64,000 bases of DNA from Escherichia phage LYE-01. Positions 15,889 to 47,569 of this stretch are shown piece after piece (the first letter of the stretch is position 1; each line of letters opens with the position of its first letter). The notes under the pieces were generated by a model that made no database searches, was not told the DNA's origin, and worked only from the letters and a program-made list of their open reading frames with translations. The stretch lies in the sequence record PQ303785.1, one strand, 5' to 3'. A program made the translations under genes and the position numbers.

Positions 15889-15970
15889 ATACAAGTAATA
15901 TAAATCTATACTTATGAAAAAGAGATGATTCTGGACCCTTTGGATTCCCTAAAATTTTTTTCACAAAACT

Positions 15971-20007: not shown

Positions 20008-21435
20008 GTGGTAGAAATTATTCTTTCTCATCTCATATTTGATCAAGCTTATTTTTCAAAAGTTTGGCCATATATGGATTCAGAATATTTTGAAAGTGGT
20101 CCAGCTAAAAATACATTCAAATTAATTAAATCTCATGTTAATGAGTACCATAGCGTTCCATCTATTAATGCGTTAAATGTTGCGTTAGAAAATAGTTCAT
20201 TTACTGAAACAGAATATTCTGGTGTAAAAACACTTATTTCAAAACTGGCCGATTCTCCGGAAGACCATAGCTGGTTAGTAAAAGAAACAGAAAAATATGT
20301 TCAGCAAAGGGCGATGTTTAACGCTACATCTAAAATAATTGAAATTCAAACTAATGCTGAGCTTCCTCCGGAAAAACGAAATAAGAAAATGCCAGATGTA
20401 GGTGCTATTCCTGACATCATGCGCCAAGCATTATCAATTTCATTTGATAGTTACGTTGGTCATGATTGGATGGATGACTACGAAGCACGTTGGCTATCTT
20501 ATATGAATAAAGCTCGTAAGGTTCCATTTAAACTCAAAATTCTAAATAAAATTACTAAAGGCGGAGCTGAAACTGGAACACTGAACGTTTTAATGGCTGG
20601 TGTTAACGTTGGTAAGTCATTAGGTCTGTGTTCATTGGCAGCAGATTATTTACAGCTTGGACATAATGTTCTTTACATTTCCATGGAAATGGCAGAAGAA
20701 GTCTGTGCTAAACGTATTGATGCTAATATGCTTGACGTTTCTCTTGATGACATTGATGATGGGCATATTTCTTACGCTGAATATAAAGGAAAAATGGAAA
20801 AATGGCGTGAGAAATCTACTCTTGGACGTTTAATCGTTAAACAGTATCCTACTGGTGGAGCAGACGCTAATACATTTCGTTCTCTTTTGAACGAATTGAA
20901 GCTCAAGAAGAATTTTGTTCCAACAATCATTATTGTCGACTATCTGGGCATTTGTAAATCTTGCCGCATCAGAGTTTATTCGGAAAATAGTTACACAACT
21001 GTTAAAGCCATCGCAGAAGAATTGCGTGCTCTGGCTGTTGAAACTGAAACTGTTCTTTGGACTGCAGCACAGGTTGGTAAGCAAGCTTGGGATTCTTCTG
21101 ATGTTAACATGAGCGATATTGCGGAATCTGCCGGTCTTCCAGCAACAGCCGATTTTATGCTTGCGGTCATTGAAACCGAGGAGTTAGCAGCTGCTGAACA
21201 ACAACTCATTAAGCAAATCAAATCACGATATGGTGATAAGAATAAATGGAATAAGTTTTTGATGGGTGTTCAAAAAGGAAATCAGAAATGGGTAGAAATT
21301 GAACAAGATTCTACTCCAACTGAAGTGAACGAAGTAGCAGGTTCACAACAGATACAAGCTGAACAGAACCGCTATCAAAGAAACGAATCCACTCGAGCTC
21401 AGTTAGATGCTTTGGCGAATGAATTAAAATTTTAG
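20008..21435 (+). CDS. 41: gp41 replicative DNA helicase (475 aa, GTG start)
   Basis: Begins MVEIILSHLIFDQAYF; Walker A GVNVGKS; 475 aa as T4 gp41. Confidence 0.9.
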   Translation: MVEIILSHLIFDQAYFSKVWPYMDSEYFESGPAKNTFKLIKSHVNEYHSVPSINALNVALENSSFTETEYSGVKTLISKLADSPEDHSWLVKETEKYVQQRAMFNATSKIIEIQTNAELPPEKRNKKMPDVGAIPDIMRQALSISFDSYVGHDWMDDYEARWLSYMNKARKVPFKLKILNKITKGGAETGTLNVLMAGVNVGKSLGLCSLAADYLQLGHNVLYISMEMAEEVCAKRIDANMLDVSLDDIDDGHISYAEYKGKMEKWREKSTLGRLIVKQYPTGGADANTFRSLLNELKLKKNFVPTIIIVDYLGICKSCRIRVYSENSYTTVKAIAEELRALAVETETVLWTAAQVGKQAWDSSDVNMSDIAESAGLPATADFMLAVIETEELAAAEQQLIKQIKSRYGDKNKWNKFLMGVQKGNQKWVEIEQDSTPTEVNEVAGSQQIQAEQNRYQRNESTRAQLDALANELKF

Positions 21436-21464
21436 TTTACAAGCTGACAAGACTATGGTATAGT
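21435..21464 (+). promoter_or_regulatory. early promoter; -35 GTTTAC shares its G with the gene 41 TAG stop; -10 lies inside an 8-bp inverted repeat
   Basis: TAGTTTACAAGCTGACAAGACTATGGTATAGTAGTCTTGT. Confidence 0.5.
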
Positions 21465-21493
21465 AGTCTTGTTGGTTAAATGAGGAGATTGTT

Positions 21494-21676
21494 ATGGAAT
21501 TGGTAAAGGTAGTTTTTATGGGGTGGTTTAAGAATGAAAGCATGTTTACTAAAGAAATCACAATGATGAAAGATGACGTTCAATGGGCTACTACTCAATA
21601 TGCTGAAGTTAATAAAGCATTAGTTAAAGCTTTCATTGATGACAAGAAAGTATGCGAAGTGGATTGCCGAGGATAA
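21494..21676 (+). CDS. dmd: Dmd, discriminator of mRNA degradation (60 aa)
   Basis: 60 aa beginning MELVKVVFMGWFKNESMF, recognised as T4 Dmd (gene 61.5). Confidence 0.75.
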   Translation: MELVKVVFMGWFKNESMFTKEITMMKDDVQWATTQYAEVNKALVKAFIDDKKVCEVDCRG

Positions 21677-21677
21677 T

Positions 21678-21920
21678 ATGCACATTGTTTTATTTAAACC
21701 TACTCCGTATAATGTCAGGAAAAATACTCAATTCAAGGCACTTATTGCGGATACGTGGGAATTGGTGTTAGATATTCCAGCAGAAGAAAGCCCTCCATTT
21801 GGTCGAGTGGAATTTATTAAGTTTGCTGTGCGCCCTACGAAGCGACAGATTCGCCAATGCAAAAGATACTTTCGTAAAATCGTCAAGTTAGAGAAACAGT
21901 TATTGATGCTAGTAAAATAG
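21678..21920 (+). CDS. hypothetical protein, 61.4-like position (80 aa from ATG 21678)
   Basis: GAGGA SD; starts 2 nt after dmd stop; basic C-terminus. Confidence 0.4.
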   Translation: MHIVLFKPTPYNVRKNTQFKALIADTWELVLDIPAEESPPFGRVEFIKFAVRPTKRQIRQCKRYFRKIVKLEKQLLMLVK

Positions 21921-21922
21921 TA

Positions 21923-21952
21923 GTTTACAAGCTGATAGAGTTGTGTTATAGT
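21923..21952 (+). promoter_or_regulatory. early promoter (TAGTAGTTTAC, 18 nt spacer, TATAGT) with -10 embedded in a 9-bp inverted repeat
   Basis: AGCTGATAG...CTATCAGCT flank GTTATAGTA; paralogous to the element at 21435. Confidence 0.5.
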
Positions 21953-21983
21953 AATTCTATCAGCTAATCGCGGAGAAAAGAAA

Positions 21984-22238
21984 ATGATGCTAGTTAATAG
22001 AGAATATCAGTTTAAATCAGAAGAAGATTTGGAAAAATTCGCGAGTGGTTGTGAACTGAATAGACGCACAGCTAAAGTCATAGGATTAAAACCCTTTACA
22101 GTTCTAGATTGTGAAGTTTCTAAATTCCGCAGAGGGTGTTCTATTAGCGGTCATGCTCTGGTTGATGGAAACACATTTTTCTTTGTTTTTAGCGTCAGAG
22201 AACTTTTATTGATTAACGAACTTGAGGAAATAAAATAG
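21984..22238 (+). CDS. hypothetical protein (84 aa)
   Basis: ORF with its own promoter cassette and GGAG SD. Confidence 0.4.
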   Translation: MMLVNREYQFKSEEDLEKFASGCELNRRTAKVIGLKPFTVLDCEVSKFRRGCSISGHALVDGNTFFFVFSVRELLLINELEEIK

Positions 22239-22267
22239 TTTACTTTTGTTGGAAATTGAGATACTAT
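22238..22267 (+). promoter_or_regulatory. early promoter (TAGTTTAC junction) upstream of sp
   Basis: GTTTAC at 22238-22243 sharing G with the upstream TAG stop; TACTATTAT -10 region; GAGGAG SD. Confidence 0.45.
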
Positions 22268-27615: not shown

Positions 27616-28101
27616 ATGGAAGCGATTTTGTTTGAAATGTATATTAGCAGTGATAGCATGTCGTTTGCTAAAGATGTTCCAATTACAGTAGCAGTAATGA
27701 TTGATAAGGGTTATTGTGACCCAATGTATCTAGTAGAAAATTTCGTTTCAATGCCAGTTCCAGAAGATGCTGAAATAAAGCTTAAAAAGATCGGAATTAT
27801 TGAAACTGTACCAAATATTCCGTTTAGAGCAATTGAAGCATTTACTAAATCCGAATACATTAATGTTAGCGCAGAACAATATAATGATAAGCCTTTATCT
27901 TTTTATTCGTACGATTCACTATATAGTTGGAAAATAGATAAAGGAAATAAATTTATAATTGCAAGTGAAGATGCTTTATCATACTTTATTTCTTCTGTAT
28001 GGAATAGTTTACATCCAAATTTGCTAAAAATTCATGAATTTGATGATGCTCCTACTGTTGTTTTAGGTAAAACAAATGAAAGTTCTGAAGAAAATGTTTG
28101 A
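27616..28101 (+). CDS. hypothetical protein (161 aa from ATG 27616; frame open from 27583)
   Basis: GAGGAAA SD before ATG 27616. Confidence 0.4.
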
Positions 28102-29105: not shown

Positions 29106-29135
29106 GTTTACTTTCCTTCCTAACAATGATATGAT
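29106..29135 (+). promoter_or_regulatory. T4-type early promoter upstream of modB
   Basis: AAAGTTGTTTAC, 18 nt spacer, TATGAT. Confidence 0.5.
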
Positions 29136-29161
29136 AGCTTCTGAAGTATATGGAGGCTATC

Positions 29162-29785
29162 ATGATTATTAATCTTGCAGATGTTGAACAGTTATCTATA
29201 AAAGCTGAAAGCGTTGATTTTCAATATGATATGTATAAAAAGGTCTGTGAAAAATTTACTGACTTTGAGCAGTCAGTTCTTTGGCAATGTATGGAAGCCA
29301 AAAAGAATGAAGCTCTTCATCGGCAGTTGAATAAAATCGTTAAAAAGCATTTAACTGAATCACCTTATCAGTTATATCGTGGTATATCAAAATCGACAAA
29401 AGAACTCATTAAAGATTTACAAGTTGGAGAAGTGTTTTCAACGAACAGAGTAGATTCATTTACTACTAGTTTGCATACAGCGTGTTCTTTTTCTTATGCT
29501 GAATATTTCACTGAAATAGTACTTCGCTTAAAAACTGATAAAGCTTTTAATTACTCTGACCATATCAGCGATATTATACTTTCTTCTCCTAATACTGAGT
29601 TTAAGTATACATATGAAGATACTGATGGATTAGATTCAGAACGTACTGATAACTTAATGATGATTGTGCGTGAACAAGAATGGATGATTCCAATTGGAAA
29701 GTATAAAATAACTTCTATTTCAAAAGAAAAATTACACGATTCATTTGGAACATTTAAAGTGTATGATATTGAGGTAGTTGAATGA
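29162..29785 (+). CDS. modB: ModB-like ADP-ribosyltransferase (207 aa from ATG 29162)
   Basis: Paralogous to the downstream ModA-like ORF; GGAGG SD before ATG 29162; position upstream of modA. Confidence 0.55.
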   Translation: MIINLADVEQLSIKAESVDFQYDMYKKVCEKFTDFEQSVLWQCMEAKKNEALHRQLNKIVKKHLTESPYQLYRGISKSTKELIKDLQVGEVFSTNRVDSFTTSLHTACSFSYAEYFTEIVLRLKTDKAFNYSDHISDIILSSPNTEFKYTYEDTDGLDSERTDNLMMIVREQEWMIPIGKYKITSISKEKLHDSFGTFKVYDIEVVE

Positions 29786-34066: not shown

Positions 34067-34096
34067 GTTTACTTCCTCGGTTAGTTGTGGTATTAT
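34067..34096 (+). promoter_or_regulatory. T4-type early promoter
   Basis: AAAAGTTGTTTAC, 18 nt spacer, TGTGGTATTAT; GAGGATAAT SD leader. Confidence 0.55.
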
Positions 34097-34123
34097 AACA
34101 CCATAGCTACTGAGGATAATAAA

Positions 34124-34624
34124 ATGAAAATTTATCGTGTTGAATCATCTTTTAGTATTCTTAATTATGAAGATGCTATAACAATACGTCGAAATCTTTG
34201 TGTTCAAATAACGCCGTACAGGAGTATAATAGATTCATGGAGCGAAGAGTGGTTATTACACGTAGGTTATGATAGACCTAATTTTATGCATCATAGCGAT
34301 AATAATAAAAGAATTCCTTTACCACACGAAGATAAACTATTAGTTAAAAACGCTAATATAGTAATTAATACTAAGTTCAAGAAAGATTATGTTGGAGTAG
34401 AATATCATATTCCAGGATGGTTTATAGCTCTTTATCATTTTGCTTTCGCTAGTGAATATGATATGATGAGATGGTTCACACGAGAAGAGCGGGAAGAATT
34501 ATCTTCTAAAGGATTTTATCTTGCTGTATACGAAGTGCCAGATGACCAAGTTATCATTGGCAGGCGCCAAGTAATGTTCCGCAAATCACATGCTGAACTC
34601 GTAGATTTTATTGAAATGAGATAA
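34124..34624 (+). CDS. hypothetical protein (166 aa from ATG 34124)
   Basis: ORF after early promoter and SD. Confidence 0.4.
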   Translation: MKIYRVESSFSILNYEDAITIRRNLCVQITPYRSIIDSWSEEWLLHVGYDRPNFMHHSDNNKRIPLPHEDKLLVKNANIVINTKFKKDYVGVEYHIPGWFIALYHFAFASEYDMMRWFTREEREELSSKGFYLAVYEVPDDQVIIGRRQVMFRKSHAELVDFIEMR

Positions 34625-34625
34625 T

Positions 34626-35168
34626 ATGAAATTTAATTATACTCCTGAATACACACCAAATCCGGCAGCTAAACTGATTGATTTTGATGTTGTAAGCACT
34701 TATGTATGCCCTGTTAAACCACTGGAAATTAAGGAACCTACTATGACTACCGCTATTGAAATCGGCAAAACCTACAAACTGGTTGAAACTGAAATTAAAA
34801 CTAATGCCTTAATTTCCGGCCATAAAATTTTGACTGATGTTTTTGGCGAAGGCGAATTTACCGTTGAAGACTTTGAAAAAAGTAAATGGTTTACTAAATC
34901 TTATATTGTCCACGGTCGTCGTTTAGACAATAACAAAATAGAGAAAATCCTGGTTTATGAAGCAGAGTTCATCCTGTTCCAAGAAGTTGAAGAACAAGAC
35001 CCTACCGACCTTCTAACTCGTGCAGTAGCTATTAAGACCCCATTTATTTCGGTCTGCGGTTGGGTAACAGACCAGTGGGTTGAAGACGGTGTTGAACTTC
35101 TAAACGTTGTTCATGCAGGTGATTTTAGCGTAGTACCTCGTAGTGCGGTGGTAGCTATTTTAAATTAA
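34626..35168 (+). CDS. MotB paralog (180 aa)
   Basis: C-terminal GWVTDQWVEDGVELLNVV shared with MotB (GYITDQWVEDGVKLYNVV). Confidence 0.5.
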   Translation: MKFNYTPEYTPNPAAKLIDFDVVSTYVCPVKPLEIKEPTMTTAIEIGKTYKLVETEIKTNALISGHKILTDVFGEGEFTVEDFEKSKWFTKSYIVHGRRLDNNKIEKILVYEAEFILFQEVEEQDPTDLLTRAVAIKTPFISVCGWVTDQWVEDGVELLNVVHAGDFSVVPRSAVVAILN

Positions 35169-35170
35169 TA

Positions 35171-35206
35171 GTTTACAAACTCTTGGGACCGGAGTATAAT
35201 GGTCCC
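35171..35206 (+). promoter_or_regulatory. early promoter with -10 TATAAT inside a GGGACC/GGTCCC hairpin
   Basis: TAGTTTAC, 18 nt spacer, TATAAT; 6-bp inverted repeat flanks the -10. Confidence 0.5.
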
Positions 35207-35244
35207 GCGGAGTATAAAATCTTTTTAACAAGTGAGAGATAACT

Positions 35245-37590: not shown

Positions 37591-37635
37591 TGATTACTGG
37601 AGTATAATATTCCCGAAACCAAACGAGGATAAGTG

Positions 37636-39453
37636 ATGATTAAGAATGAAATTAAAATTCTGAGCGATATTGAACATATCAAAAAGCGTAGCGGCATGTA
37701 CATTGGCTCTTCCGCTAATGAAATGCATGAGCGCTTTCTGTTTGGTAAATGGGAAAGTGTTCAGTATGTACCTGGTCTTGTTAAGCTTATTGATGAAATT
37801 ATTGATAACTCAGTAGATGAAGGTATTCGTACTAAGTTTAAATTCGCAAATAAAATTAATGTTACTATCAAAAACAATCAAGTAACAGTTGAAGATAACG
37901 GTCGTGGTATTCCACAAGCGATGGTTAAAACACCTACCGGTGAAGAAATTCCTGGTCCAGTTGCTGCATGGACTATTCCAAAGGCAGGTGGTAACTTTGG
38001 TGATGATAAAGAACGCGTCACTGGTGGTATGAATGGTGTTGGTTCTAGTTTAACTAACATTTTTTCTGTGATGTTTGTCGGTGAAACTGGCGACGGTCAA
38101 AATAATATTGTAGTTCGTTGTTCAAATGGCATGGAAAATAAATCATGGGAAGATATTCCTGGAAAATGGAAAGGAACACGTGTTACTTTCATTCCTGATT
38201 TTATGTCATTTGAAACTAATGAGCTATCTCAGGTTTATCTTGACATTACACTAGATCGTCTCCAGACACTTGCGGTAGTTTATCCTGATATTCAATTTAC
38301 CTTTAATGGTAAAAAGGTTCAGGGTAATTTTAAGAAATATGCACGCCAATATGATGAACACGCTATCGTTCAAGAACAAGAAAATTGTTCTATTGCGGTT
38401 GGTCGTTCACCTGATGGTTTTCGTCAATTAACATACGTTAATAACATTCATACTAAGAATGGTGGCCATCACATTGACTGCGTTATGGATGATATTTGTG
38501 AAGACCTTATTCCACAAATCAAACGTAAGTTCAAAATTGATGTAACTAAAGCACGTGTTAAAGAATGTTTGACTATCGTTATGTTTGTTCGTGATATGAA
38601 AAACATGCGATTTGATTCTCAAACTAAAGAGCGTTTGACTTCTCCATTTGGTGAAATTCGTAGTCATATTCAGCTTGATGCTAAAAAGATTTCACGTGCT
38701 ATTTTAAATAATGAAGCAATTTTAATGCCAATCATTGAAGCTGCCTTGGCTCGTAAATTGGCGGCAGAAAAAGCAGCAGAAACTAAAGCAGCTAAAAAGG
38801 CTTCTAAAGCCAAGGTTCATAAACATATTAAAGCGAATCTTTGTGGTAAAGATGCTGATACTACTCTTTTCTTGACTGAGGGTGATTCTGCTATCGGATA
38901 TCTTATTGATGTTCGTGATAAAGAACTTCATGGTGGTTATCCATTGCGTGGTAAAGTTCTCAACAGTTGGGGTATGTCTTATGCTGATATGCTTAAAAAC
39001 AAAGAACTGTTTGATATTTGCGCAATCACTGGATTGGTTCTTGGTGAAAAGGCTGAAAACTTAAATTATCATAATATTGCAATTATGACCGATGCTGACC
39101 ATGATGGTCTAGGAAGCATTTATCCTTCTCTGCTCGGATTTTTTAGTAATTGGCCAGAACTGTTTGAACAAGGAAGAATTCGCTTCGTCAAAACTCCTGT
39201 AATCATCGCTCAGGTCGGTAAAAAACAAGAATGGTTTTATACAGTCGCTGAATATGAGAGTGCTAAAGATGCTCTACCTAAACATAGCATCCGTTATATT
39301 AAAGGACTTGGCTCTTTGGAAAAATCTGAATATCGTGAGATGATTCAAAACCCAGTATATGATGTTGTTAAACTTCCTGAGAATTGGAAAGAGCTTTTTG
39401 AAATGCTCATGGGAGATAATGCTGACCTTCGTAAAGAATGGATGAGCCAGTAG
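37636..39453 (+). CDS. 39: DNA topoisomerase II large (ATPase) subunit, continuous gene 39 of T2/T6 type (605 aa)
   Basis: Begins MIKNEIKILSDIEHIKKRSGMYIGS; GHKL ATPase motifs; continuous to 605 codons with no split or bypass. Confidence 0.9.
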   Translation: MIKNEIKILSDIEHIKKRSGMYIGSSANEMHERFLFGKWESVQYVPGLVKLIDEIIDNSVDEGIRTKFKFANKINVTIKNNQVTVEDNGRGIPQAMVKTPTGEEIPGPVAAWTIPKAGGNFGDDKERVTGGMNGVGSSLTNIFSVMFVGETGDGQNNIVVRCSNGMENKSWEDIPGKWKGTRVTFIPDFMSFETNELSQVYLDITLDRLQTLAVVYPDIQFTFNGKKVQGNFKKYARQYDEHAIVQEQENCSIAVGRSPDGFRQLTYVNNIHTKNGGHHIDCVMDDICEDLIPQIKRKFKIDVTKARVKECLTIVMFVRDMKNMRFDSQTKERLTSPFGEIRSHIQLDAKKISRAILNNEAILMPIIEAALARKLAAEKAAETKAAKKASKAKVHKHIKANLCGKDADTTLFLTEGDSAIGYLIDVRDKELHGGYPLRGKVLNSWGMSYADMLKNKELFDICAITGLVLGEKAENLNYHNIAIMTDADHDGLGSIYPSLLGFFSNWPELFEQGRIRFVKTPVIIAQVGKKQEWFYTVAEYESAKDALPKHSIRYIKGLGSLEKSEYREMIQNPVYDVVKLPENWKELFEMLMGDNADLRKEWMSQ

Positions 39454-39482
39454 TTTACTTTACCACAAGGATGTGGTATAAT
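39453..39482 (+). promoter_or_regulatory. early promoter (TAGTTTAC junction with gene 39 stop; TG-extended TATAAT)
   Basis: TAGTTTACTTTACCACAAGGATGTGGTATAAT. Confidence 0.55.
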
Positions 39483-43440: not shown

Positions 43441-43930
43441 CTTGACTAGTGAAATGAAGGTCAAAATTGCTGATACAGCAAGATACTCTTTAAAACAAAA
43501 TCCTAATCAGGATAAAGCAGAAGTTATTGAAAGATGTCGCATCGCTGTGTACGCAGAATTTTTTGTAGCAGATTGGCTAAGCGGGTATGTTAACAAAGGC
43601 CAAGAGGATGTTAATGACCCGTATACATATGCGTGGGATGTACTGGCGCATCCAAAATACTGCGGGCTTCGTGTAGAAGTCAAAACACATCAAACTGACT
43701 CACGTTGGATTTCGGTAACAACCGGATGCAGCGGAGAGTATCCATACGGTTCTGGAATAAATCTAGGGCCCATTCTGAATCATCAAGTCGCTGACTGTAT
43801 AATTATATTCAACACTAAAGAAATTCATCCAGGTGTCATCCAGTACACTCCGAAGTTCATCGGTGATAGAGAAGACCTTCGTAAGGTTGTAAGAAAAAGC
43901 AACTACAACGGATGGTATCTTTCCATTTAA
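43373..43930 (+). CDS. denB: DenB-like endonuclease IV (185 aa)
   Basis: 185 aa ORF in the rIIB-ndd interval where T4 denB lies; size and position from recall only. Confidence 0.5.
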   Translation: MQKTNPGLQRLFQIPTFTLSNSDLTSEMKVKIADTARYSLKQNPNQDKAEVIERCRIAVYAEFFVADWLSGYVNKGQEDVNDPYTYAWDVLAHPKYCGLRVEVKTHQTDSRWISVTTGCSGEYPYGSGINLGPILNHQVADCIIIFNTKEIHPGVIQYTPKFIGDREDLRKVVRKSNYNGWYLSI

Positions 43931-43946
43931 AAATTTTCACAAAACG

Positions 43947-43976
43947 GTTTACATACCACAAGGACTGTGGTACTAT
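43947..43976 (+). promoter_or_regulatory. T4-type early promoter of a PeSL-like cassette
   Basis: TTTTCACAAAACGGTTTAC, 18 nt spacer, TGTGGTACTAT. Confidence 0.55.
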
Positions 43977-44434: not shown

Positions 44435-44464
44435 GTTTACAAGACTGTTCCTCTGTGGTATTAT
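44435..44464 (+). promoter_or_regulatory. early promoter; 7-bp inverted repeat GTTCCTC/GAGGAAC brackets the -10 and SD
   Basis: AAAGTTGTTTAC, 18 nt spacer, TGTGGTATTAT. Confidence 0.5.
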
Positions 44465-44492
44465 TACTCTATCAACTACGGAGGAACAGAAA

Positions 44493-44606
44493 ATGAAAAA
44501 GATTGTTAAAGCTATATGGAATGTAGTTATAATACTAGTAGTTTTGAGTATATTCCCAATCGTTTTAATGATTGATGTATTAAACGCTTACTTTGGATTT
44601 ATGTGA
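44493..44606 (+). CDS. hypothetical tiny membrane protein (37 aa)
   Basis: GGAGG SD; single TM. Confidence 0.3.
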   Translation: MKKIVKAIWNVVIILVVLSIFPIVLMIDVLNAYFGFM

Positions 44607-47545: not shown

Positions 47546-47569
47546 TTTCAAAATTTTTTTCACAAAACG

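Follow-up and report, generated by a model that had tools for sequence, protein, structure and literature searches.

T4-like phages carry short cassettes that combine an early promoter with a stem-loop, termed promoter-early stem-loop (PeSL) cassettes (Arbiol et al., 2010, PMC2839356; Comeau et al., 2014, PMC4122927). The upstream stop codon opens a PeSL, and the place most commonly taken by the stem-loop is between the -35 and -10 elements or over the -10 (PMC2839356). Downstream of one tested phi1 stem-loop, lacZ was lowered to a degree similar to that seen with a strong terminator, and recombination between PeSLs produces mini-circles (PMC2839356). PeSLs of the T4/PST type have also been described, and in these the stem-loop lies just upstream of the promoter and not over the -10 (PMC4122927).

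A second described system is that of the T4 genes e, soc, 49 and I-TevI. Upstream transcripts of these genes fold into a hairpin that sequesters the Shine-Dalgarno (SD) sequence or the AUG. Where a promoter is located in the 5' strand or loop of the hairpin, its transcripts come without the 5' arm and are translated (PMC3014915).

The T4 early promoters themselves are well characterized. The published consensus has GTTTAC at positions -36 to -31 (PMC1524935), and a promoter type with UP, -35, TGn and -10 elements has been reported (PMC2988021). The T4 dmd-tifA operon, in which tifA is gene 61.4, is reported to be under the control of an early promoter (PMC9391042). Neither an overlap of a TAG stop codon with the -35 nor a hairpin is discussed in the two promoter reviews (PMC2988021, PMC1524935), and the T4 GenBank records AF158101 and S57514 have no promoter or terminator features annotated for the region considered below.

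The window analysed here is a stretch of 64,000 nucleotides from Escherichia phage LYE-01 (PQ303785.1). It belongs to Tequatrovirus, with 96.7-98.2% identity to the Tequatrovirus records listed and ∼98% to T4 relatives. The gene order across the region is 41, dmd, 61.4/tifA, an extra open reading frame and sp; the extra, GoF-like reading frame of 84 amino acids is absent from T4 (Table 1). The start of 61.4 is assumed from analogy with T4, where 61.4 begins 2 nt past the dmd stop; the list of open reading frames gives an open frame at 21636..21920 with a TTG start. The TAG at 21918-20 is the 61.4 stop codon and is followed by a second in-frame TAG (21921-23), which overlaps the -35 of the next promoter. 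Farther along, a TAA stop (35166-68) is followed by an in-frame TAG (35169-71), and the TAG at 39451-53 ends a 606-codon reading frame, that of the topoisomerase large subunit. A scan of the whole window against Rfam gave no family at the gathering score.

Table 1. Genes, early promoters and RNA hairpins of the window.
Feature	Position	Strand	Basis or detail
Gene 41 (replicative helicase)	20008..21435	+	ORF list; annotation of 98%-identical phages and T4; stop check
Gene 41 TAG stop	21433-21435	+	Its G is also the G of the -35 hexamer
dmd-61.4(tifA) early promoter	21435..21464	+	-35 GTTTAC 21435-40; 17-bp spacer
dmd promoter -10	TGG 21456-58, TATAGT 21459-64	+	Start predicted near 21471
Hairpin 1 (RNA)	21442..21477	+	15-bp stem, 21442-56 with 21463-77; 4 G-U pairs
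dmd (antitoxin against RnlA)	21494..21676	+	ORF list; related-phage annotation
61.4/tifA homologue	21679..21923	+	PHROG 2375; tandem in-frame TAG TAG at end
Second early promoter	21923..21952	+	-35 GTTTAC 21923-28; TGT extended -10
Second promoter -10	TATAGT 21947-52	+	Start predicted near 21959
Hairpin 2 (RNA)	21930..21965	+	14-bp stem, 21930-43 with 21952-65
Extra 84-aa ORF, GoF-like family	21984..22238	+	TAG stop 22236-38 overlaps sp promoter -35
sp (spackle) early promoter	22238..22267	+	-35 GTTTAC 22238-43; -10 TACTAT 22262-67
29106 promoter, upstream of modB	29106..29170	+	Absent from first-pass annotation
34067 promoter	34067..34126	+	9 nt past dexA stop; absent from first-pass annotation
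35171 promoter, upstream of motB	35166..35213	+	-35 35171-76; -10 TATAAT 35195-200
39453 promoter	39451..39482	+	TAG fused to -35 39453-58; -10 TATAAT 39477-82
44435 promoter	44435..44495	+	-35 44435-40; -10 TATTAT 44459-64; ATG 44493

The first-pass annotation had proposed that a TAG supplies the first bases of a GTTTAC -35 element at five sites in the window. This is borne out: a check of stop codons shows that TAG gives the G of the -35, and at all five sites this TAG either ends the upstream gene or is a second stop in the same frame. The motif TAGTTTAC is found seven times, always on the + strand (21433, 21921, 22236, 28005, 35169, 39451 and 56292), where dinucleotide shuffles give a mean of 2.7. 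As 3 of 100 shuffles reach seven copies, the bare 8-mer is only marginally enriched and is uninformative by itself. For two of these motifs (28005 and 56292), the 17-bp spacer and TAnnnT -10 do not follow. The other five, those of the first-pass annotation, all have a GTTTAC -35, a 17-bp spacer and a TAnnnT -10 (TATAGT, TACTAT or TATAAT), and its assignment of them to the sigma70 type is correct. Three of the five have a TGn-extended -10 (TGG at 21456-58, TGT at 21944-46, TGG at 39474-76), which is missing at 22238 (AGA) and 35171 (GAG). An A/T-rich, UP-like sequence, AATTAAAATTT, lies upstream of the promoter at 21435. Each of the five promoters is correctly oriented towards an early gene, whose SD and start codon it precedes by 20-60 nt; these genes are dmd, the GoF-like reading frame, sp, motB and rIIA.1.

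With GTTTAC, a 17-bp spacer, TGn, TAnnnT and A/T-rich upstream sequence, the promoters themselves show no difference from T4 early promoters. The dmd promoter region has 98.6% identity to that of T4 over 71 nt, with one substitution, and the record of Yersinia phage fPS-2 labels two of these elements as early promoters (the dmd one as "predicted early promoter"). The elements are ordinary T4-like early promoters of a kind already described.

Inverted repeats with the -10 in the loop, noticed previously at four promoters, do exist. Perfect arms of 9 bp flank a loop of 8 nt at the dmd promoter (21447-55/21464-72), arms of 10 bp a loop of 16 nt at the second promoter (21930-39/21956-65), arms of 6 bp a loop of 10 nt at 35171 (35185-90/35201-06) and arms of 9 bp a loop of 27 nt at 44435 (44445-53/44481-89). 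The -10 hexamers within these loops are at 21459-64, 21947-52, 35195-200 and 44459-64; at the dmd promoter the last T of the -10 doubles as the first base of the 3' arm. Among the 18 early promoters of the window, three have arms of at least 9 bp, where 0.15-0.46 are expected, and in seven the arms reach 7 bp or more, where 2.1-3.0 are expected (P ∼0.01-0.02). Folding, which the first-pass annotation had put forward as a check, gives RNA hairpins of -18 to -23 kcal/mol at the four promoters, more stable than those of shuffled sequences (z -4.3 to -6.0). Leaders that begin at the predicted start sites are unstructured (z ∼0). At 35171 the RNA hairpin has 13 bp (35179-91 with 35200-13), and at 39453 there is a weak 7-bp spacer hairpin, TACCACA/TGTGGTA (39461-67/39472-78), that overlaps the extended -10.

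The presence of an embedded hairpin is related to the closeness of the upstream gene. With an embedded hairpin defined by a z at or below -3.8, six of the eight window promoters that have a stop codon at most 14 nt from the -35 contain one, versus none of the other ten (Fisher P=0.0015). Several of these ten have instead a GC-rich hairpin that stands apart from the promoter, on its upstream side. The exceptions at compact junctions are the sp promoter at 22238, with no hairpin, and that at 39453, with the weak one only. The association is replicated in 42 non-redundant promoters from viral contigs, collected by a DNA pattern scan (12/22 vs 2/20, P=0.003). After gene 41, other T4-like lineages display a stop codon, a GC-rich tetraloop hairpin and then a GTTTAC promoter; in lineages where the promoter starts at most 5 nt from the gene 41 stop, the hairpin is inside the promoter. 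The TAG/-35 overlap and the embedding of the hairpin are linked, via tight packing against the preceding gene. The specific occurrence of the hairpins at promoters that abut an upstream gene points to a role in read-through RNA, not in promoter opening.

The window elements share much with PeSLs. A strong sigma70-type early promoter is found together with a stem-loop in a short intergenic cassette that is bounded by the upstream gene's stop codon and the SD/ATG of the next; the stem-loop is mostly between the -35 and -10 or over the -10, with G-T pairs in the stems; and the cassettes lie among small, variable accessory reading frames, at junctions of indels or reading-frame replacement. There are also differences. 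The tested RB49/phi1 stem-loops are rich in G-runs and C-runs, whereas the window elements are AU/GU-rich, and the PST/T4-type stem-loop is drawn just upstream of the promoter, whereas the window hairpin is embedded in it.

The elements are probably T4-type early promoters placed tight against the preceding gene, with a built-in PeSL hairpin that works as RNA. They would be read by the host sigma70 RNA polymerase. Because the promoter abuts the preceding gene, the G of GTTTAC is overlapped by TAG, a rare stop codon. Since there is no intergenic space for the usual post-gene hairpin, the 5' arm is formed by the promoter spacer and the 3' arm by the initial transcribed region, and the -10 is therefore left in the loop. 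The hairpin would form only in transcripts that begin upstream and read through the promoter; those from the embedded promoter would begin inside the loop or the 3' arm and have an unstructured leader.

At 29106, 34067 and 44435 the 3' arm includes the ribosome-binding site. An 18-bp hairpin at 29106 (29125-42 with 29152-70) takes in both the SD GGAGG and the AUG, a 17-bp hairpin at 34067 (34074-91 with 34100-16) has the SD GAGGA within its 3' arm, and the promoter at 44435 is inside a 15-bp hairpin (44445-59 with 44475-89) whose 3' arm holds the SD GGAGGA (44480-85). The predicted probability that the SD is unpaired is 0.00-0.01 in read-through RNA versus 0.31-0.68 in promoter-proximal RNA at the three promoters, with 0.00 versus 0.67 at 44435. 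With the ribosome-binding site in the 3' arm, RNA that reads through would be untranslatable for the downstream gene, and we infer from the predicted folds that only promoter-proximal RNA would be translated. This is the same architecture as that of e, soc, 49 and I-TevI. Those genes use late (gp55) promoters, which delays translation, whereas the internal promoter in the window is early; hence only promoter-proximal early RNA would be open to translation. The two focal hairpins, at 21435 and 21923, differ from both groups in that they exclude the SD (the dmd SD, GAGGAG at 21482-87, is outside hairpin 1), and the corresponding read-through and proximal values are 0.42 vs 0.56 and 0.85 vs 0.58. 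To judge from their position, the focal hairpins most likely attenuate, terminate or 3'-stabilise the upstream message; a literature search found no map of T4 3' ends or transcript ends.

Neither the rule that ties embedded hairpins to compact junctions (6/8 vs 0/10; 12/22 vs 2/20) nor the subclass of early promoters with a sequestered SD is stated in the PeSL papers (PMC2839356, PMC4122927). A link between the stop-to--35 distance and hairpin position is not stated there, translation is not treated (the word occurs 0 times), and SD sequestration is not mentioned.

A broader reading, which is possible but doubtful, is that the embedded hairpins serve T4-like phages generally as a "transcript-origin discriminator" and are under selection in their own right. 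When the stop codon abuts the -35, the spacer would evolve complementarity to the initial transcribed region or the Shine-Dalgarno sequence. RNA derived from upstream would then be capped by a hairpin or be untranslatable for the next gene, and RNA from the embedded promoter would stay open. If this is true, some genes would be strictly "own-promoter only" (immediate-early), and the late-promoter trick of e, soc, 49 and I-TevI would be extended to early promoters.

It is unlikely that the focal hairpins are plain Rho-independent terminators of the upstream units that overlap the next promoter by chance. They resemble such terminators in that a stable hairpin comes right after a stop codon, and the annotators of phage SA20RB, with TransTermHP and WebGeSTer, called both of them "rho-independent terminator". 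Of 34 distinct T4-like lineages, 10 have a canonical terminator, GC-rich and with a U-tract, at this same place behind gene 41, and one PeSL stem-loop cut read-through about as much as rrnB T1 (PMC2839356). The focal hairpins, however, do not have a GC-rich stem directly before a U-tract: their stems are AU- and GU-rich with low GC, and the sequence continues as ...UUGGUU AAAUGAGG after hairpin 1 and ...UCAGCU AAUCGCGG after hairpin 2. An AU-rich stem without a U-tract makes a poor canonical intrinsic terminator, and a local terminator scan of the window does not list either hairpin. In addition, the genes downstream in T4 belong to delayed-early/middle read-through units (PMC2988021), and complete termination is therefore unlikely. 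The three sister hairpins at 29106, 34067 and 44435, moreover, clearly aim at the ribosome-binding site.

Less probable still is the suggestion that the repeats are functionless, the complementarity being a fortuitous by-product of duplication and shuffling of promoter cassettes. The cassettes are indeed a repeated family: TAGTTTACAAGCTGA is common to the dmd promoter (21433) and the second promoter (21921), and TACCACAAGGA is common to 39453, 43947 and other genera. A Klebsiella phage has the -35 to -10 stretch of the dmd promoter without the 3' arm. The complementarity, however, is specific to each instance. In the set of 42 promoters, where the -35 and -10 are identical throughout, 9 (21%) have a stem that reaches 9 bp or more in fixed register, versus 1.6% of chimeric arm pairs; stem length has a bimodal distribution, and the arms are unrelated in sequence. 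The association of hairpins with compact junctions, found in two independent samples, also argues against a by-product. Loci for covariation were sought with the gp41 C-terminus and the DNA pattern scan, since a search with the Dmd protein returned only near-identical phages. Within Tequatrovirus, all 15 pairs of hairpin 1 are kept in each of eight variants, a count that a shuffle control cannot tell from chance (263/500). The substitutions are all pair-preserving, one pair appearing as G-U, G-C and A-U, and the variation, mostly at wobble positions, is one-sided throughout.

Gene content between 41 and sp differs among Tequatrovirus, Mosigvirus and Gaprivervirus. The 61.4-sp interval has three alleles (T4, the window and SA20RB) that differ by reading-frame cassettes, and the insertion in this interval is present in 74 of ∼660 records. 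The allele junctions have a promoter/SD cassette on one side, and GTTTAC of the sp promoter is the right-hand junction in all three. A role in recombination, raised as an option by the first-pass annotation, fits these local data as well as the PeSL literature (PMC2839356, PMC4122927). As far as sequence comparison goes, a reading-frame swap bounded by cassettes supports the reported recombination role of PeSLs, and the conserved cassettes may provide short patches of homology for swaps of small reading frames between related phages.

Highly improbable is a role of the repeats in DNA, where a cruciform or hairpin would compete with the open complex or expose a single-stranded -10, so that promoter strength would depend on supercoiling or structure. 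Phage N4 has hairpin-type promoters, which offer a precedent. At both focal promoters perfect arms of 9-10 bp flank the -10 symmetrically, and single-stranded DNA folds are more stable than those of shuffled sequences (z -2.6 to -4.2). But hairpins in DNA have low predicted stability (-6.7 to -11 kcal/mol), and their loops measure 6-15 nt when folded and 8-27 nt when taken between perfect arms; cruciform extrusion is disfavoured for short AT-rich arms with long spacers. Equivalent hairpins on both strands with a short loop are not found. The two strands are unequal, as 44 of 306 stem pairs are G-U, and such pairs, being A-C mismatches opposite, make the stems much better on the sense strand. 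Hairpin 1, with loop GGUAUA, has -18.6 to -18.9 kcal/mol as sense RNA and -10.1 as antisense; for hairpin 2 the values are -17.7 to -18.0 and -12.2. In the window hairpins generally, sense is more stable than antisense by 5-8 kcal/mol in a comparison that was biased, the hairpins having been picked by sense energy. Repeated in a strand-neutral manner, the comparison shows greater stability of sense in 18 of 23 hairpins against a genomic background of 61%, a moderate excess, and the sense-strand bias of the stems after this control is suggestive. Furthermore, the hairpins track the closeness of the upstream gene and no property of the promoter itself, and many equally good early promoters have no repeat. 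The stems fit sense-strand RNA best. The first-pass proposal that promoter melting and hairpin formation in DNA are mutually exclusive is therefore unsupported, given the G-U pairs of the sense strand, the weak DNA folds and the link to compact junctions. As for operators at which a dimeric phage or host protein would shut off the early promoters, a palindrome across the -10 has the classical repressor-operator geometry, but this reading is rejected as barely conceivable because the arms differ at every promoter (ACAAGACTA, AGCTGATAGA, GGGACC, CTGTTCCTC) and have no common sequence or spacing, with loops of 8-27 nt.

As a discovery the embedded hairpins carry little weight, since T4 early promoters are textbook knowledge and cassettes that start at a stop codon with a stem over the -10 were described in 2010. 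They do have consequences for annotation and engineering. Automatic annotation mislabels them, the same 30-40 nt being a "promoter" in one record and a "rho-independent terminator" in another. Expression models and engineering designs for T4-like phages should allow for the fact that a promoter moved or replaced takes with it an RNA hairpin that would affect the upstream message, and in some cases this hairpin may be a switch for which transcripts get translated. The cassettes flag sites at which accessory anti-defence genes (dmd, tifA and the GoF-like reading frames) are swapped.

Inverted repeats that enclose a −10 hexamer in their loop had been described at four sites in the window by the first-pass annotation, and all four are confirmed, with perfect arms of 9, 10, 6 and 9 bp. 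Their RNA folds reach −18 to −23 kcal/mol (z −4.3 to −6.0). Arms of at least 9 bp are found at three of the 18 early promoters in the window, against 0.15–0.46 expected. For each of these promoters, the distance from the upstream ORF stop to the −35 element was recorded and the segment from spacer to start codon was folded. A strong embedded hairpin, which spans the promoter spacer and the initial transcribed region, is present at six of the eight compact promoters (stop within 14 nt of the −35) versus none of the ten with a longer gap (Fisher P=0.0015). Four of the latter, 708, 15971, 27004 and 47570 (promoters are named by the −35 start), have a separate GC-rich hairpin between stop and promoter. 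In an independent, unbiased sample of all viral-contig matches to GTTTACA-N13-ATGGTATAGT, which comprises 42 non-redundant promoters, a strongly structured embedded segment is found at 12 of 22 compact junctions versus 2 of 20 others (P=0.003). In 57 T4-like loci compared 3′ of gene 41, most lineages show a GC-rich tetraloop hairpin directly past the stop, followed by a GTTTAC promoter; the hairpin is inside the promoter in lineages where no more than 5 nt separate the gene 41 stop from the promoter start. The stop/−35 overlap and the embedded hairpin are one phenomenon.

Genes, stop codons, early promoters and promoter-associated motifs in the window
Feature	Position	Strand	Remarks
uvsX, 40, then 41	20008–21435 (41)	+	comparison with relatives
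dmd	21494–21676	+	comparison with relatives
61.4/tifA	stop codon 21918–21920	+	comparison with relatives
Extra 84-aa ORF	21984–22238	+	between 61.4/tifA and sp
sp	from 22297	+	then 61.2, 61.1, 61
TAG	21433	+	gene 41 stop
61.4 stop, extra in-frame TAG	21918, 21921	+	tandem stops
TAG	22236	+	stop of extra 84-aa ORF
TAA stop, in-frame TAG	35166, 35169	+	tandem stops
TAG	39451	+	stop of 606-codon topoisomerase large-subunit gene
Compact promoters (stop ≤14 nt from −35)	21435, 21923, 29106, 34067, 35171, 44435		strong embedded hairpin, z −3.8 to −7.1
Compact promoter (stop ≤14 nt from −35)	39453		weak 7-bp hairpin
Compact promoter (stop ≤14 nt from −35)	22238		no hairpin
TTTT(C)ACAAAAC(G/T)	690–707, 15953–15970, 43929–43946, 47552–47569		second cassette family

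The proposal that a stop TAG, or an extra in-frame TAG, runs into the −35 element is exact at all five sites for which it was made. The sequence TAGTTTAC occurs seven times in the window, exclusively on the + strand, where 2.7 copies are expected; at least seven were obtained in 3 of 100 shuffles. Downstream of each of the five sites, a 17-bp spacer leads to a TAnnnT hexamer; the two remaining copies, at 28005 and 56292, lack this arrangement. In a crude census of window positions 1–52500, TAG is the terminal codon in 8 of ~92 long frames on the + strand, and four of these eight are fused or tandem to a GTTTAC −35, so that use of this rare stop codon is largely explained by the overlap. One such TAG ends the topoisomerase large-subunit gene (37633–39453), a single unbroken open frame of 606 codons; in T4, this function is divided between gene 39 and gene 60. 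The TAG/−35 overlap is best read as genome compaction, and no evidence of a separate function for it was seen.

The elements carry the published T4 early-promoter signature, which consists of GTTTAC at −36 to −31, TAnnnT after a 17-bp spacer, a TGn extension of the −10 and A/T-rich upstream sequence (PMC1524935; PMC2988021); the TGn is present at three of the five. The 4 kb around 21431–21970 has 96.7–98.2% identity to the Tequatrovirus (T4-like) genomes listed, and local gene names are taken from annotated relatives and T4 itself. The dmd promoter region differs from that of T4 by one substitution (98.6% identity over 71 nt). In T4 the dmd–tifA operon is reported to be under an early promoter, with a further promoter 3′ of tifA (PMC9391042), and the record of Yersinia phage fPS-2 labels the dmd and sp promoters ‘predicted early promoter’.

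The 71-nt dmd promoter query has two matches per genome in several phages, including T4 (NC_000866.4, OZ209023.1). Tequatrovirus contigs L104 and L137 have a second promoter, located outside the window, with the same −10-in-loop geometry and other arms (AGTTGGCAAGGTT/AATCTTGTCAACT). In Klebsiella phage MY02 (Marfavirus, a different genus), a 32-nt stretch at 602–632 of locus L071, at the end of an unrelated ORF, has 96.9% identity to the dmd promoter; it spans −35 to −10 including the 5′ arm, without a complementary 3′ arm. This points either to spacer conservation for promoter reasons or to horizontal movement of the cassette. The motB promoter region has two copies of the direct repeat CGGAGTATAA (35190–35199 and 35208–35217); the first holds the −10 TATAAT and the second (TATAAA), 18 nt downstream and directly past the hairpin, may represent either a duplication scar or an additional −10-like element. 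A second early-promoter cassette family has TTTT(C)ACAAAAC(G/T) immediately 5′ of GTTTACA. Promoters 15971 and 47570 have a GC-rich hairpin and T-run within ~100 nt upstream, an order that equals the ‘stem-loop upstream of promoter’ layout of PST/T4 PeSLs (promoter-early stem-loop cassettes). A spacer hairpin, ACCACAAGGA(C)TGTGGTA, in which the extended −10 forms the 3′ arm, is found at two window promoters (39460–39478 and 43953–43972) and just past the gene 41 stop in two other T4-like lineages (L029, L030), and looks like a conserved promoter variant.

Stem pairing among the 42 promoters, which have identical −35 and −10 elements, was compared with that in chimeras built from the 5′ half of one promoter and the 3′ half of a second. 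Nine of the 42 promoters form, in a single fixed register, a stem of 9 or more uninterrupted pairs, versus 1.6% of chimeras. Stem lengths are bimodal (≥9 or ≤2) and arm sequences mutually unrelated; the pairing is covariation at the promoter-instance level. All 15 pairs of the dmd hairpin are intact in 8/8 Tequatrovirus variants, one pair appearing as G-U, G-C and A-U, with changes that are one-sided and a shuffle control that gives no separation from chance.

At the RNA level, 44 of 306 stem pairs are G-U, and antisense RNA of the six strong window hairpins is less stable than sense by 5–10 kcal/mol. With strand-neutral selection, sense is the more stable in 18 of 23, versus 61% in background windows, a bias suggestive of RNA but not decisive. 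Single-stranded DNA folds are no better than −6.7 to −11 kcal/mol, with loops of 6–15 nt, and cruciform extrusion is unlikely where arms are this short and AT-rich and the spacers between them long. G-U pairs, strand asymmetry, weak DNA folds and dependence on the upstream gene favour a hairpin in read-through RNA, i.e. RNA started upstream that crosses the promoter. The first-pass interpretation stands in part: structure-dependent control holds at the RNA level, and a DNA hairpin or cruciform competing with promoter melting is not supported, given the weak DNA folds, sense-strand bias and upstream-gene dependence. Promoter-proximal transcripts, with a predicted start ~7 nt past the −10, have their 5′ end within the loop or 3′ arm and lack structure.

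At 29106 (modB), 34067 (after dexA) and 44435, the Shine-Dalgarno (SD) or AUG forms the 3′ arm. In silico, SD unpaired probability at these promoters is 0.00–0.01 in read-through RNA versus 0.31–0.68 in promoter-proximal RNA. T4 genes e, soc, 49 and I-TevI have an SD-sequestering hairpin with an internal promoter (PMC3014915); the three sites share this architecture, but the internal promoter is early here and late there. In Mosigvirus loci L009 (818–868) and L011 (716–766), at the ORF upstream of dmd, a 14-bp perfect inverted repeat (TTCTCCAGTAGTTG/CAACTACTGGAGAA) encloses an early promoter and has the SD in its 3′ arm, the strongest SD-sequestering early-promoter example among loci compared.

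The SD at promoters 21435 (dmd) and 21923 (next ORF) is unaffected by the hairpin. In position, these two hairpins correspond to the terminator that follows gene 41 in other genera, and the record of phage SA20RB labels both ‘rho-independent terminator’. They have no U-tract and so are not canonical intrinsic terminators; they would probably attenuate or terminate upstream transcription, or protect the upstream 3′ end.

The 61.4–sp interval has three alleles. That of T4 has no insert; that of the window has promoter, hairpin and a GoF-like 84-aa ORF; that of SA20RB has promoter, hairpin and SD identical to those of the window, then an unrelated 60-aa ORF. On the right, the junction of all three falls at the sp promoter's GTTTAC; on the left, the window/SA20RB swap has its junction immediately 3′ of the shared SD. 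The window cassette is found in 74 of ~660 Tequatrovirus records, full-length with at least 98.8% identity in 70 of the 74. Its ORF belongs to the GoF/‘mRNA metabolism modulator’ family (PHROG 2980, E=3e-20). Gene 41 lies ~0.5 kb upstream, and GoF has been linked to stability of gene 41 mRNA (PMC12152347). Judged from the junctions, the alleles fit the PeSL modular shuffling model (PMC2839356; PMC4122927); they do not show the stem itself to be recombinogenic. A recombination role, also raised in the first-pass annotation, is supported for ORF swaps at the cassette level and not for the stem. In experimental evolution, dmd–tifA was amplified via assorted 6–10 bp microhomologies, with boundaries differing per population (PMC9391042).

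This type of element is known already, and differences from known PeSLs are of degree. Window stems are AU/GU-rich whereas the tested RB49/phi1 PeSL stems are G-run/C-run, and the window hairpin is embedded in the promoter whereas PST/T4 elements are shown with the stem immediately 5′ of it (PMC4122927). SD sequestration and the compaction rule are not discussed in the PeSL papers (PMC2839356; PMC4122927). What is new is modest: a quantitative association of embedded hairpins with stop-to-−35 distance, and an early-promoter version of the ribosome-binding-site-sequestering hairpin.
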